From IMG/VR virus record IMGVR_UViG_2706794682_000018: a stretch of DNA of 16,334 nt, one strand, 5' to 3'. Below the pieces are notes generated by a model. The model was not told the origin of the DNA, did not search any database, and saw only the letters and a list, made by a program, of their open reading frames with translations. This DNA comes from a virus. Lineage: Duplodnaviria > Heunggongvirae > Uroviricota > Caudoviricetes. The position numbers and the translations under genes are program-made. Shown one piece after another: positions 1,977 through 16,334 of this stretch. How positions within the stretch are numbered: the stretch's first letter is position 1; every line of letters begins with the position of its first letter.

Positions 1977-2258
1977 TTATCCAGTGACGGTAGTCGAGGC
2001 TAAGGGCTTTTTTAACCTCGCATCCGCGCCTGCGGTAACACTGAATGAGCCATTCGGCCTGTTCTTCAGTGCATGGGGGATGCTGGTACCAATCAGATTT
2101 AAATGCGTGAGAGCGCCGCCCGTGCCTGCTGGCAAAGACGGCTGAATTATCAGAATTGTGTAGTCTGGAAGGCAGTGGCTGACAATAGCGCCATTCTCAA
2201 CGCGCACAGTATAGAGGCCATCTTCACTAAAAATTTCACGTAATTCTTCGATTTTCAT
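1977..2258 (-). CDS. Small ORF, copy 1 (MKIEELREIFSEDGLYTVRVENGAIVSHC...); only the first ~29 codons are shared with copy 2; occupies the position of rem in Qin-type prophages
   Basis: ATG at 2258-2256 preceded by GGAAGGA 8 nt upstream. The first 29 codons are shared with the ORF at 3497, with 4 synonymous and 2 conservative changes. The C-terminal 64 aa is unique and low-complexity, so true length is uncertain. Confidence 0.35.
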   Translation of the reverse strand: MKIEELREIFSEDGLYTVRVENGAIVSHCLPDYTILIIQPSLPAGTGGALTHLNLIGTSIPHALKNRPNGSFSVTAGADARLKKPLASTTVTG

Positions 2259-2379
2259 CAACAGAATCCTTCCAGATAAATAGCACTCCCCTGTTCGGGG
2301 TCCATCCCTCTTCTCCCTGCGCGCTACTTAAGTATTTTTGATTCTATTCCGGCACCATCTAAAACTTCAAACGCGTTGA

Positions 2380-2410
2380 AAATAAAAACAAAAACCCGCC
2401 GAAGCGGGTT
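2380..2410 (-). terminator. Intrinsic terminator downstream of hok copy 1
   Basis: On the minus strand, stem CCCGC, loop TTCG, stem GCGGG (plus 2395-2408), followed by TTTTTGTTTTTATTTT. It lies about 70 nt after the hok stop. Confidence 0.6.
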
Positions 2411-2478
2411 AAGTGTGGGTGCATTGAGGATGCCTGCCCCATCAGAGGTGGCGAGGGATTTCTCCCCCGCCTGGTCTC

Positions 2479-2634
2479 TTACTCCTCAGGTTCGTAAGCT
2501 GTGAAGACAGCGACCTCCGTCTGGCCGGTTCGAATTCGTACCTCGCAGAGGTCTTTCCTCGTTACCAGTGCCGTCACTATGACGGTTAAACAGATGACGA
2601 TCAGGGCGATTAACATCGCCTTTTGCTGCTTCAT
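2479..2634 (-). CDS. hokD: Hok/Gef-family type I toxin, 51 aa (HokD/RelF-like membrane peptide)
   Basis: MKQQKAMLIALIVICLTVIVTALVTRKDLCEVRIRTGQTEVAVFTAYEPEE, which I recognise as the Hok family (hydrophobic helix plus conserved Cys). ATG at 2634-2632 with AAGGAG 9 nt upstream. The 70-aa ORF in the track is an in-frame upstream extension. Confidence 0.85.
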   Translation of the reverse strand: MKQQKAMLIALIVICLTVIVTALVTRKDLCEVRIRTGQTEVAVFTAYEPEE

Positions 2635-2693: not shown

Positions 2694-2783
2694 AATTGGC
2701 CTCAGATTAATGTTAAGCGTCTTGCCGGACGCGTAATGTTAACTGGGGCTTTTCTCTATCTGCCTTTTGGTGTTCATGCCTGA
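2694..2783. repeat. Inverted repeat arm A (90 bp, perfect), inside the hok copy 1 leader region
   Basis: Exact reverse complement of 2916-3005, verified base by base at both ends and at internal checkpoints. Pairing breaks at 2693/3006 and 2784/2915. Confidence 0.9.
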
Positions 2784-2915
2784 GACAGATAGCCTCAAGC
2801 ACCCGCTGCAATTCTACTTAACTCTCCTTTTCCCGCAAACCGTTTTTATCCCCAGCGGCAAATCGAATACACCACCAGCGCCACCGCCATCGCAATTCCT
2901 ACCGTTGTTAATGCT

Positions 2916-3005
2916 TCAGGCATGAACACCAAAAGGCAGATAGAGAAAAGCCCCAGTTAACATTACGCGTCCGGCAAGACGCTTAACATTAATCTGAGGC
3001 CAATT
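2916..3005. repeat. Inverted repeat arm B (90 bp, perfect), 132 bp from arm A
   Basis: Exact reverse complement of 2694-2783. It overlaps the last 17 nt of the minus-strand 60-aa ORF 2989-3171. Confidence 0.9.
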
Positions 3006-3171
3006 GCAGGAGTTTGAAAAAACGCTTGTGGAATGCGTAGTTACACACACGCTTAAAGTCTGCGTGTATCCACTCACCTATTTTGATTTGATGCAGAAAA
3101 TCGCAACTCTCCGGCGTCGCCGGGAGAAGTAATCCGGAAGAGGTTTGTTTGACCAGTTGTATATGTGCCAT
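2989..3171 (-). CDS. Hypothetical 60-aa ORF (MAHIQLVKQTSSGLLLPATPESCDFLHQIKIGEWIHADFKRVCNYAFHKRFFKLLQLASD)
   Basis: ATG at 3171-3169 with GGAGAAAG upstream. No family recognised. Its 3' end runs into inverted-repeat arm B. Confidence 0.2.
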   Translation of the reverse strand: MAHIQLVKQTSSGLLLPATPESCDFLHQIKIGEWIHADFKRVCNYAFHKRFFKLLQLASD

Positions 3172-3209
3172 CGGCTTTCTCCGGTGGCACGGTGTTACAC
3201 AGCAGGAGT

Positions 3210-3497
3210 TCAATCCTGCTCAAGATTGTAGATGAGTTTATTCTTCAGCAAAAGCAGAAAACCAGCCTTAAAACCAATCTCTTTCAAAACCCGTAATGAT
3301 GTGACAAATTCGTCCTCACGCAAAATAAAACCGTCCGTCAGAAGTCCATTACAAAAATAAAATAACACAGCACCGCTCTTCCTTTGTTGAGATTGCAAAC
3401 ATCTAATGCGGCAATGGCTGACAATCGCTCCATTCTCAACGCGCACAGCATAGAGGCCATTTTCACTAAAAATTTCACGCAATTCTTCGATTTTCAT
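3210..3497 (-). CDS. Small ORF, copy 2 (MKIEELREIFSENGLYAVRVENGAIVSHC...); shares only its first ~29 codons with copy 1
   Basis: ATG at 3497-3495 with the same GGAAGGA site as copy 1. The 162-bp block 3411-3572 is about 94 percent identical to 2172-2333. The C-terminal tail is unrelated to copy 1. Confidence 0.3.
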   Translation of the reverse strand: MKIEELREIFSENGLYAVRVENGAIVSHCRIRCLQSQQRKSGAVLFYFCNGLLTDGFILREDEFVTSLRVLKEIGFKAGFLLLLKNKLIYNLEQD

Positions 3498-3746: not shown

Positions 3747-4060
3747 TTACTTCCTGGNNNNNNNNNNNNNNNNNNNNNNNNNNNNNNNNNNNNNNNNNNN
3801 NNNNNNNNNNNNNNNNNNNNNNNNNNNNNNNNNNNNNNNNNNNNNNNNNNNNNNNNNNNNNNNNNNNNNNNNNNNNNNNNNNNNNNNNNNNNNNNNNNNN
3901 NNNNNNNNNNNNNNNNNNNNNNNNNNNNNNNNNNNNNNNNNNNNNNNNNNNNNNNNNNNNNNNNNNNNNNNNNNNNNNNNNNNNNNNNNNNNNNNNNNNN
4001 NNNNNNNNNNNNNNNNNNNNNNNNTGAAGCAGATAGCCTCAAGCACCCGCAGTCATTCTA
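3747..4060 (-). other. Second hok-family locus (paralogue of copy 1) whose coding region and leader are hidden by the N run 3758-4024
   Basis: 3661-3757 is homologous to the copy 1 hok 3' region 2410-2490. A stop TAA sits at 3749-3747 with ..RK just upstream. After the N run, 4025-4057 is homologous to copy 1 at 2780-2815 (CAGATAGCCTCAAGCACCCGC). Confidence 0.5.
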
Positions 4061-5790: not shown

Positions 5791-6537
5791 CTACTTAACA
5801 ACCCTCGAATGGCTAACATTCGGACGCCAGCTCTCCCAGTTAAAATTCACCCAGCGCCCGCCGTTCATGACCATGCGATCCATCACCCGCTCGCCGAGCA
5901 ATGTTTTCATCACCTCATAGTTCAGGTTTGTCAGCATCCCCACGCTGCGCATCGACGCTGTCCGGCGATCAACAATCTGGTGCAGCACCACCTGCTCGTT
6001 TTTCGTCTCGCGCTGAATGCCAATTTCATCAAGAACCAGCAGATCCACTTCGCACAGCTCCCGCAAAAATTTTTCGCCTGACTGCCCGTCGTCATAGCTG
6101 GCGTGCAGGGCGCTCATAACATCAGCCACGGTAACCACAATCACTGTCTGACCGTCTTTCAGCAGGCGATTCCCGATAGCTGCCGCTAAGTGGTTCTTCC
6201 CGGTACCAGGTTTTCCGCTGAACGCAAAATTTGTACACCCGGTCATCAGTTCATCAGCGATGGATTTCGCCTGACTCAACGCGTATCGCTGCGCTTCGTT
6301 CTGCACCTGGTAATTCGAAAACGAGCATTTGCGGTGCAATGGCTGGATGCCAGAGCGATTCAGAATTTTTTCCACCCGCAACTGACGATTCTGACGGTTG
6401 ATCTCCTCACAACGTTTCTGGCCTTCGGAAAGTTGCCACTCGCGCCACTCCGCTACCGTCTTGAATGGCGCGGTTACATGTGACGGGGCCAGTCTGCGGA
6501 TACGTTCAAGAACGTCGCCTGTCGCAATATTTTTCAT
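5791..6537 (-). CDS. ydaV: DnaC-like replication protein / helicase loader (lambda P analogue)
   Basis: 248 aa with Walker A GKPGTGKNHLAAAIG and Walker B LLVLDEIG. AGGGGG site upstream; start 6 bp after the ydaU stop. Confidence 0.9.
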   Translation of the reverse strand: MKNIATGDVLERIRRLAPSHVTAPFKTVAEWREWQLSEGQKRCEEINRQNRQLRVEKILNRSGIQPLHRKCSFSNYQVQNEAQRYALSQAKSIADELMTGCTNFAFSGKPGTGKNHLAAAIGNRLLKDGQTVIVVTVADVMSALHASYDDGQSGEKFLRELCEVDLLVLDEIGIQRETKNEQVVLHQIVDRRTASMRSVGMLTNLNYEVMKTLLGERVMDRMVMNGGRWVNFNWESWRPNVSHSRVVK

Positions 6538-10153: not shown

Positions 10154-10403
10154 NNNNNNNNNNNNNNNNNNNNNNNNNNNNNNNNNNNNNNNNNNNNNNN
10201 NNNNNNNNNNNNNNNNNNNNNNNNNNNNNNNNNNNNNNNNNNNNNNNNNNNNNNNNNNNNNNNNNNNNNNNNNNNNNNNNNNNNNNNNNNNNNNNNNNNN
10301 NNNNNNNNNNNNNNNNNNNNNNNNNNNNNNNNNNNNNNNNNNNNNNNNNNNNNNNNNNNNNNNNNNNNNNNNNNNNNNNNNNNNNNNNNNNNNNNNNNNN
10401 NNN

Positions 10404-15098: not shown

Positions 15099-16334
15099 AT
15101 GTCTAAATTACCAACAGGTGTCGAGATTCGAGGTAAATACATTCGCATCTGGTTCATGTTTCGAGGAAAACGATGTCGGGAAACATTGAAAGGCTGGGAG
15201 GTTACTAACAGTAACATTAAAAAAGCCGGGAATTTAAGAGCGTTGATAGTTCATGAAATCAATTCCGGTGAGTTTGAGTATTTAAGACGTTTTCCCCAGT
15301 CCAGCACTGGGGCAAAAATGGTGACAACGAGGGTCATAAAAACGTTCGGGGAGCTTTGTGATATCTGGACAAAAATTAAAGAAACAGAGTTAACAACAAA
15401 CACAATGAAGAAAACGAAATCACAATTAAAAACACTCAGGATAATAATTTGTGAGAGTACTCCGATATCGCATATTCGTTATAGCGATATCTTAAACTAC
15501 CGGAATGAACTGCTGCATGGAGAAACGCTTTACCTGGATAATCCAAGATCCAACAAAAAAGGAAGAACCGTGCGCACAGTTGATAACTATATCGCCCTGC
15601 TCTGTTCGTTGTTACGTTTTGCGTATCAGTCGGGATTTATATCAACCAAACCATTTGAAGGAGTAAAGAAATTACAGAGAAACAGAATAAAGCCTGACCC
15701 GTTATCTAAAACAGAATTCAATGCATTAATGGAAAGTGAAAAAGGACAGAGCCAGAACTTGTGGAAATTTGCCGTATACTCCGGGCTTCGTCACGGGGAA
15801 CTGGCTGCTCTGGCGTGGGAGGATGTGGATTTCGAGAAGGGAGTTGTGAATGTCAGAAGAAACCTGACGATACTGGATATGTTCGGTCCCCCAAAAACAA
15901 ATGCGGGGATCCGGACGGTAACACTACTGCAGCCTGCTCTTGAAGCACTGAAGGAGCAATACAAACTGACCGGGCATCATCGCAAAAGCGAAATCACTTT
16001 TTATCATCGGGAGTACGGCAGAACCGAAAAGCAAAAACTGCATTTTGTTTTCATGCCCAGAGTGTGTAACGGAAAACAGAAACCTTATTACTCGGTAAGC
16101 AGTTTGGGTGCGAGATGGAATGCAGCAGTAAAACGTGCTGGTATTCGCCGCCGTAATCCGTACCATACGCGGCATACTTTTGCCTGCTGGCTGTTGACGG
16201 CAGGAGCGAACCCGGCGTTTATAGCCAGCCAGATGGGGCATGAAACTGCGCAGATGGTGTATGAAATTTACGGTATGTGGATTGATGACATGAACGACGA
16301 ACAGGTAGCCATGTTGAATGCGCGGTTATCGTAG
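15099..16334 (+). CDS. intR: Tyrosine site-specific integrase, 411 aa
   Basis: Catalytic residues in RHGELAALAWEDVD, HTRHTFACWLL and YEIYGMW. TAG stop at 16332-16334 is the last codon of the window, so the attachment site lies outside. Confidence 0.9.
   Translation: MSKLPTGVEIRGKYIRIWFMFRGKRCRETLKGWEVTNSNIKKAGNLRALIVHEINSGEFEYLRRFPQSSTGAKMVTTRVIKTFGELCDIWTKIKETELTTNTMKKTKSQLKTLRIIICESTPISHIRYSDILNYRNELLHGETLYLDNPRSNKKGRTVRTVDNYIALLCSLLRFAYQSGFISTKPFEGVKKLQRNRIKPDPLSKTEFNALMESEKGQSQNLWKFAVYSGLRHGELAALAWEDVDFEKGVVNVRRNLTILDMFGPPKTNAGIRTVTLLQPALEALKEQYKLTGHHRKSEITFYHREYGRTEKQKLHFVFMPRVCNGKQKPYYSVSSLGARWNAAVKRAGIRRRNPYHTRHTFACWLLTAGANPAFIASQMGHETAQMVYEIYGMWIDDMNDEQVAMLNARLS

Follow-up and report, generated by a model that had tools for sequence, protein, structure and literature searches.

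The hok#1 locus and its inverted repeat

The window analysed here, a stretch of 16,334 nt, is a Rac-type prophage carrying intR, recET, racR and ydaS-V. It belongs to contig CWTX01000049.1 of the Shigella sonnei assembly GCA_001251615.1, in which contig coordinates equal window coordinates plus 2. Read along the minus strand, QueH is followed by a run of N, a Rem-like gene (Rem2) and the first 56 codons of a DUF1367 gene. These lead into an inverted repeat, comprising arm B, a spacer and arm A, which is in turn followed by a hok gene (hok#1), a second Rem-like gene (Rem1), DUF968, RusA and Q (Table 1).

Table 1 Features at and around the inverted repeat, in window coordinates.
Feature	Position	Strand	Description
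QueH	4792-4106	-	first in minus-strand order
Run of 267 N (gap 1)	3758..4024		replaces hok#2 and its leader; same N run in the public record
Rem-like gene of P1 (Rem2)	3210..3497	-	PF27490 Rem; between hok#2 and DUF1367
Truncated DUF1367 gene	2989..3172	-	60 aa; last three codons and stop (ASD*) from arm B; Pfam PF07105, residues 1-58 of a 198-position profile
DUF1367, first 56 codons	3172-3005	-	followed by arm B, spacer, arm A and hok#1
Junction 2	3000..3005		inverted leader meets DUF1367 codon 56
Arm B	2916..3005	+	inverted, promoter-less leader fragment; leader sense on +, Sok-like sense on -
Junction 1	2912..2921		P2 small-ORF sequence meets inverted leader
Spacer	2784..2915	-	first 21 nt of hok#1 mRNA (2804-2784), putative hok promoter, 3' part of small hydrophobic ORF (2846-2923)
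Arm A	2694..2783	-	leader nt +22 to +111 (hok#1 mRNA); reverse complement of arm B without mismatch; inside the RF01794 match; aligns with hok leaders of relatives
238-nt stretch identical to hok#2 of P1	2546..2783	-	from a three-way alignment: R1 2699-2783, P1-type patch 2661-2698, R2 2546-2660
hok#1 coding sequence	2479..2634	-	51 aa, HokD type; in-frame mok-like extension from 2691
Rem-like gene of P2 (Rem1)	1977..2261	-	followed by DUF968
DUF968	1901-843	-	followed by RusA and Q

The hok#1 locus is a complete, ordinary member of the hokD type. The encoded protein matches the Hok/Gef toxin family (Pfam PF01848, HOK_GEF; E = 1.2e-23, residues 6-47), and loci with 95% DNA identity to hok#1 are annotated as hokD. 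A structured leader is present, matching Rfam RF01794 over its full length (2629-2804 on the minus strand, model positions 1-157) with 117.5 bits against a gathering score of 59. The tac/fbi fold-back pairing is also found, the 5' segment GGGUGCUUGAGG (2804-2793) being complementary to the 3' segment CCUCAAUGCACCC (2429-2417), and an intrinsic terminator lies at 2410-2393. Reading the sequence by position relative to the Rfam start places a putative hok promoter in the spacer (TTGCGG-16-TAGAAT, 2838-2811, with the -35 at 2838-2833 and the -10 at 2816-2811) and the mRNA start at 2804. A candidate Sok promoter (TTGCCT-17-TAACCT, 2649-2677 on the plus strand) scores below the scan threshold and lies outside arm A, at a position that we take to be homologous to the Sok promoter of plasmid R1.

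Several minor features accompany the locus. Sub-threshold Rfam matches at the hok 3' end (2389-2470, minus strand; isrK with 25.8 bits and rsmX with 24.8 bits) arise because of the terminator hairpin and are not separate RNAs. Promoter-like sites follow each hok terminator and precede each Rem-like gene (TTGATT-16-TAGAAT at 3606-3579 and TTGAAG-18-TAGAAT at 2370-2341, both on the minus strand), pointing to a separate rem promoter in both modules. A small conserved, unannotated ORF (2846-2923, minus strand) lies immediately upstream of the hok promoter and encodes MTWPEALTTVGIAMAVALVVYSICRWG, a hydrophobic product of 27 aa; a GGAGG precedes its ATG by 8 nt. The ORF gave no Pfam match. Its native form is present in L001-L003, L005, L018-L027 and L037, and window positions 2876-2921 match 2,136 of 5,426 E. 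coli genomes, where no feature is annotated.

The two repeat arms are exact reverse complements at 90 of 90 positions and are separated by 132 nt. Identity is lost abruptly at the inner arm ends, and the inverted repeat described in an initial annotation of this DNA is confirmed. If one mismatch is allowed, the repeat extends to 2691-2783 and 2916-3008 (93 nt). It is the sole inverted repeat reported between positions 2000 and 3800, and a perfect 90-mer inverted repeat in 16 kb cannot have originated by chance. The initial annotation had proposed that a continuous minus-strand transcript would form a hairpin of about 90 bp. This is borne out by folding of a 361-nt read-through RNA over the region, for which a long hairpin of -214 kcal/mol (z = -20.4) is predicted. 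The single-stranded DNA of the repeat region has a predicted fold of -124 kcal/mol (z = -22).

Relative to the hok ATG (2634, minus strand), arm A occupies the stretch 60-149 nt upstream, as previously described. The accompanying proposal that this is the region of the hok leader and promoter holds for the leader, of which arm A contains the Sok-target stem-loop and a GAGG upstream of the mok-like ATG at 2691. It does not hold for the promoter, which is located in the spacer together with the mRNA start. Alignment with the hok leaders of relatives agrees with arm B being an inverted copy of the leader, for part of the leader. The 94 nt at 2912-3005 are also identical to the leader of a second hok locus, hok#2, in the prophage P1 described below (L009-L015, L028 and L036). 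No hok promoter stands in front of arm B, which ends about 10 nt short of the expected Sok start and thus contains neither the putative Sok promoter (2649-2677) nor the initial ~10 nt of Sok. An Rfam scan of arm B alone returned no match. A second sok gene within arm B was considered and rejected, as Rfam matches the hok#1 leader only and arm B is devoid of the promoter region.

Since the hok promoter and mRNA start lie between the arms, it is conceivable that recombination between the 90-bp arms flips the 132-bp spacer and so toggles the toxin gene, and an invertible segment had indeed been suggested. However, the repeat has no adjacent recombinase. Its neighbours are Rem, the truncated DUF1367, hok and DUF968, and among the genes called on the contig none within 3 kb of the repeat encodes a recombinase, the nearest being the integrase gene intR (15099-16334), ~12 kb away. 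Neither a second orientation nor a homologous arrangement was found in any genome or collection searched, and every relative has the arm sequence a single time, as part of an ordinary leader. An invertible promoter cassette is thus extremely unlikely, and with neither a nearby recombinase nor a second orientation the locus does not qualify as a switch of the fimS or hin type.

Novel joins between two parent prophages

Exact-protein look-up of both Rem-like genes identified two parent prophages in closed S. sonnei genomes. The first, P1, occupies the Rac site and has the order QueH-hok#2-Rem2-DUF1367-YbcO-DUF1133. The second, P2, lies beside ompW in most genomes and has the order 76aa-55aa-114aa-smallORF-hok#1-Rem1-DUF968-RusA-Q. 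In GCA_040189005.1 a distance of 1.23 Mb separates the two prophages, which share one orientation, P2 having the lower coordinate. Identity of the window to the respective parent amounts to 99.9-100% left and right of the seam. As the two halves sit in separate prophages in closed genomes, the contig fuses P1, broken off at DUF1367 codon 56, with P2, which is broken off at codon 4 of the small ORF, and an inverted scrap of leader lies in between. The same IS is found in the same orientation after DUF1367 in P1 and downstream of the N6_N4_Mtase gene (~2.4 kb past Q) in P2, L015 6634-7761 matching L019 10981-12108.

Up to position 2921 the window carries the native upstream region of hok#1, including the small conserved ORF, and the spacer side through 2921 is identical to P2 of closed S. 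sonnei genomes. If the hok#2 leader is taken as the donor of arm B, the bases shared at junction 1 are TGCTTCAGGC (10 nt). If arm A was instead copied by fold-back, they are TCAGGC (6 nt, 2916-2921), the reverse complement of GCCTGA at 2778-2783. Relatives run ...GCTTCAGGC followed by CAGGTCAT, where the window runs ...GCTTCAGGC followed by ATGAACACC. As a side effect, the seam recreates an in-frame ATG for the small ORF in the window (MPEALTT...).

At junction 2 the shared bases are CCAATT versus native CCAGTT, of which only TT is strictly common. Relatives run ...CCCAGTT followed by GCAGGAG, where the window runs ...GGCCAATT followed by GCAGGAG, the DUF1367 sequence beginning at 3000 or 3004. 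The native junction sequences, as opposed to the novel joins, are ...GCTTCAGGCCAGGTCAT... and ...CCCAGTTGCAGGAG..., and the native alternatives to the joins at 2921/2922 and 3005/3006 are GCTTCAGGCCAGGTCATCG and CCCAGTTGCAGGAGTTTG. Position 2921 is no natural divergence point, and neither breakpoint coincides with a repeat boundary. Microhomology is hence found at both joins in the manner of a snap-back junction, with TCAGGC/GCCTGA at the turn-around and CCAATT versus CCAGTT at the return jump.

Both joins proved to be confined to this contig. When 80-nt junction queries were compared to 5,426 complete E. coli genomes, neither was covered, while their separate halves each matched thousands. 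Exact 24-mers over both junctions are absent from GTDB species representatives, IMG/VR and JGI metagenomes. The 60-aa product spanning junction 2 was found in one contig only within a collection of 15 billion proteins. In other S. sonnei the same DUF1367 allele (KRVC) reads on as ...LQLGFDYW (P0013), and DUF1367 is uninterrupted at the window breakpoint in P1 of every relative. The junctions are thus absent from independent assemblies and closed genomes of the lineage, as would be the case for a false join. The initial annotation had recommended searching for the same arrangement in other prophages; none was found across the E. coli, GTDB, IMG/VR and JGI collections.

DUF1367 is a frequent casualty in its own right. 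Several S. sonnei genomes have an IS that cuts the gene at codons 117-126. In another genome an IS is inserted (L017 6461-7792) at the equivalent of window positions 3037-3042, ~35 nt from the window breakpoint.

The alignments also bear on the possibility that a miniature transposable element has inserted beside hok, its ends being the 90-bp inverted repeats. Such an element would account for the layout of inverted repeat, spacer and inverted repeat over 312 bp, which is the sole point in its favour. However, the sequence of arm A and the spacer is found collinear in all relatives as the native hok leader and promoter, the flanks (AAAGCATGA and GCAGGAGTT) contain no target-site duplication, and no other copy is present in E. 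coli genomes, GTDB or IMG/VR. The alignments reject a miniature inverted-repeat transposable element, and we give it next to no credence.

A role in regulation is the other option raised by the hairpin. Minus-strand transcripts from Rem2 and the truncated DUF1367 would carry a Sok-like antisense copy and silence Hok from read-through RNA, either by pairing in trans with the hok#1 leader or through a 90-bp duplex with arm A that is cut by RNase III. The predicted duplex of the read-through RNA is compatible with such a cis-regulatory element, and the promoter-like site upstream of Rem2 (3606-3579) could supply the transcripts. However, the native hok#1 mRNA (2804 to ~2393) excludes arm B, and arm B is without the putative Sok promoter region and the start of Sok. 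Conservation is zero, the arrangement being unique in all collections searched. Furthermore, arm B is bounded by a truncated gene and novel joins, which points to an accident rather than a selected element. A functional hairpin or antisense element is accordingly very improbable, and the regulatory role proposed initially, as well as any selected function for the repeat, finds no support.

Exchange between the hok loci and the state of the record

hok#1 and hok#2 have two blocks in common, R1 (85 nt) and R2 (115 nt), with 38 nt between them. Comparison of the hok/sok loci of P1 (L009-L015) and P2 (L019-L027) shows that 10 of these 38 nt differ, over the mok start and the Sok 5' tail. This variable segment should be the part that sets antisense specificity. 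In the window, hok#1 contains a P1-type patch at this position, with 10 differences from native P2. As the patch is flanked by R1 and R2, the isolate has a 238-nt exact repeat. The same mosaic occurs in its native P2 context in L037, an independent assembly with 2 differences in 2,921 nt, and hence the two hok loci do exchange sequence. The patch is probably a true gene-conversion allele, to judge from these alignments, and its origin as an assembler bubble-collapse is weakened by the presence of the same mosaic in L037. With a P1-type patch inside the P2 locus, as in the window isolate and L037, the two Sok RNAs would be predicted to become interchangeable.

Other independent drafts (L028 and L034-L036) have QueH and the P1 hok promoter joined directly to hok-Rem1-DUF968-RusA-Q via the shared hok repeat. 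These hybrids, P1 on the left and P2 on the right, reflect either a real hybrid Rac prophage lineage or recurrent mis-threading. Given such hybrid joins through the hok repeat, the neighbourhood is recombinogenic, assembler-confusing, or both.

The record itself is gapped. Gap 1 is located ~750 nt from the seam and measures 267 N in the window versus 291 nt in eight relatives whose flanks are identical at 100%. On the leader, the right edge of the gap is no more than 3 nt away from the start of the repeat arms. Gap 2 (10154-10403) covers most of kilR and comprises 250 N versus 248 nt in two relatives. Both runs are found in the public record as well. Because these lengths differ from those of relatives with identical flanks, the N runs look like estimated scaffold gaps; for the same reason, deliberate length-preserving masks were rejected. 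The seam is therefore situated in a scaffolded region with unresolved paralogous repeats, namely an N gap at hok#2 and a 238-nt repeat shared with hok#1, as would be the setting of a false join.

The accession style and species suggest that the record derives from the Sanger high-throughput S. sonnei pipeline. The assembly accession was not found in the supplement of the paper describing that pipeline, and the link is thus one that we infer. In this pipeline, Velvet assembly is followed by SSPACE and GapFiller, which draw on reads other than proper pairs and relax their thresholds step by step down to low read support (Page et al. 2016, PMC5320598). Its authors state that greedy tools 'can lead to false joins' and count 4-10 misassemblies for each genome tested (Page et al. 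2016, PMC5320598). GapFiller extends by 30-mers, is satisfied with 2 reads per base and requires an overlap of >=10 nt for gap closure (Boetzer & Pirovano 2012, PMC3446322), and the 10-nt overlap at junction 1 equals this closure minimum. Partial DUF1367 proteins in other S. sonnei drafts end with their contigs at codons 29-87, making a contig edge near junction 2 plausible.

Two further candidate signs of assembly trouble were discarded. The arm length of 90 corresponds to k-1 for a Velvet k of 91, a value outside the pipeline range for 100-nt reads. Four differences from L015 at 6055-6112 could have reflected paralog mixing in this assembly, but the window agrees with closed genomes and L015 is the odd one out. 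These four clustered base differences in ydaV (L015 3362-3419 and a paralogous copy) are private to GCA_001258575.1 and present in both of its copies.

Origin of the seam and comparison with known systems

The repeat is a non-functional seam, resulting from a template switch or a false join, and not a regulatory device. It is not novel in kind, being an ordinary rearrangement or assembly join. The initial annotation added the caveat that perfect identity implies a recent event or an assembly artefact, and this has become the main story given the unique joins and gapped scaffold. Its reading of the repeat is otherwise supported in part, having overlooked the two novel joins that bound arm B and the gapped-scaffold state of the record.

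We consider the chances even that the seam is a library or assembly artefact. This reading rests on the uniqueness of the joins, the location of the parents in separate prophages, and the nature of the record as a gapped scaffold with a paralogous hok repeat. In the seam, a piece of hok leader (90-94 nt) is copied in reverse between the DUF1367 gene of P1, broken at codon 56, and the hok#1-Rem-DUF968 module of P2. On the artefact reading, this may have occurred during library preparation and short-read scaffolding or gap closure over two near-identical hok loci. A single chimeric fold-back extension from a contig edge in DUF1367 would suffice, if closed onto the P2 contig via the 10-nt overlap. 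We infer this software step or molecule, whereas the anatomy of the seam, its novel microhomology joins, their uniqueness, the separation of P1 and P2 and the adjacent gap are all observed.

Several observations do not sit easily with such an artefact. Junction 2 has only 2-6 nt shared and is not at a known repeat boundary, which is against a purely software origin, since it could not be invented by a graph or overlap step; at least a few reads or molecules must therefore carry junction 2. About 800 nt of native P2 upstream of 2921 are missing from the scaffold, and gap closers normally delete no such stretch. A normal genome should not yield read pairs that link DUF1367 to P2 in this order. 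Furthermore, both hok loci were resolved in L015, L026 and L027, which on account of their neighbouring accession numbers probably come from the same submitter and pipeline as the record. Finally, a fold-back at TCAGGC/GCCTGA followed by a microhomology jump has the geometry of an in-vivo template switch. A library chimera and a genuine in-vivo event are both compatible with this geometry, and the signatures as a whole match a false or chimeric join and, equally, a snap-back microhomology junction.

A seam that is real in the isolate, as the non-functional scar of a private in-vivo repair event, has somewhat less than an even chance. A DNA end in DUF1367 of P1 would be repaired on a P2 template, or the reverse. 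A nascent 3' end ...TCAGGC (2916-2921) could then fold back on GCCTGA (2778-2783) and copy the leader backwards for ~84 nt. A jump at the CCA[A/G]TT microhomology to the other prophage would follow, as in microhomology-mediated break-induced replication or a snap-back inverted-duplication junction. Since the same IS follows both modules in the same orientation, a homologous far end is available for such an event, and the far end could be recaptured by homology in the identical IS copies. Microhomology-mediated break-induced replication is a known template-switch route, and tandem-inversion-duplication joins formed by snap-back or template switch in Salmonella are reportedly known from the Roth laboratory.

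In keeping with an in-vivo event, the inverted piece adjoins its template, turning around at an inverted match of 6 nt. Microhomology is present at both joins, which lie outside repeats, where software would not place them. The P1-type patch in hok#1 is a real allele, seen also in L037, and P1-left/P2-right hybrids through hok occur in L028 and L034-L036. However, a single contig among the thousands of S. sonnei assemblies has the seam, which also falls inside a gapped, greedily scaffolded region. In addition, with P2 at the lower coordinate and in the same orientation as P1, a simple event would give a duplication-type join rather than a deletion, and a multi-step event is therefore required. 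Returning to the artefact reading, we slightly favour the view that the seam is absent from the isolate's chromosome as printed.

A real seam with consequences for the toxin gene is very doubtful. Here the read-through RNA duplex would be cut by RNase III, or RecA-mediated exchange between the arms would flip the 132-bp hok promoter cassette. Were this true, RNase III cutting would insulate the toxin and the downstream DUF968-RusA-Q from upstream transcription, and the seam would have given one strain a new layer of type I toxin regulation. If the seam is merely real, read-through transcripts from the Rem2 side would form a 90-bp duplex that is probably cut by RNase III. The arms could likewise mediate rare inversion of the promoter cassette or provoke instability; both would be consequences of an accident. 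A real seam would be a naturally occurring case of two resident prophages joined by a fold-back, microhomology-mediated templated event; its interest for prophage mosaicism would be modest, and it would not constitute a new type of system. More generally, where short-read scaffolds of genomes rich in IS and prophages show a perfect inverted repeat by a toxin gene, closed relatives and raw reads should be checked before regulatory claims are made.

The seam resembles false joins of the SSPACE/GapFiller type (PMC5320598, PMC3446322) in that it occurs in one draft only, its loci are apart in closed genomes, an N gap adjoins it at a paralogous repeat, and junction 1 shows a 10-nt overlap. It differs from them in that the second join is almost without overlap, lies off the repeat edge and needs chimeric or real reads; the pipeline behind the record is also a presumed one.

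With snap-back junctions the seam shares the short inverted microhomology TCAGGC/GCCTGA at the turn-around, the inverted copy beside its template, and a second microhomology jump that restores direct orientation. In contrast to these junctions, the second jump lands in the other prophage and not nearby, and the formation of the seam in a cell is putative.

Among the hok/sok loci of lambdoid prophages, such as hokD of Qin with rem downstream, hok#1 shares the protein, the full leader match, the 5'-3' pairing and the terminator. No such locus has been described with an inverted leader copy upstream of its promoter, whereas here the copy is an add-on of the seam and stands outside the family architecture.
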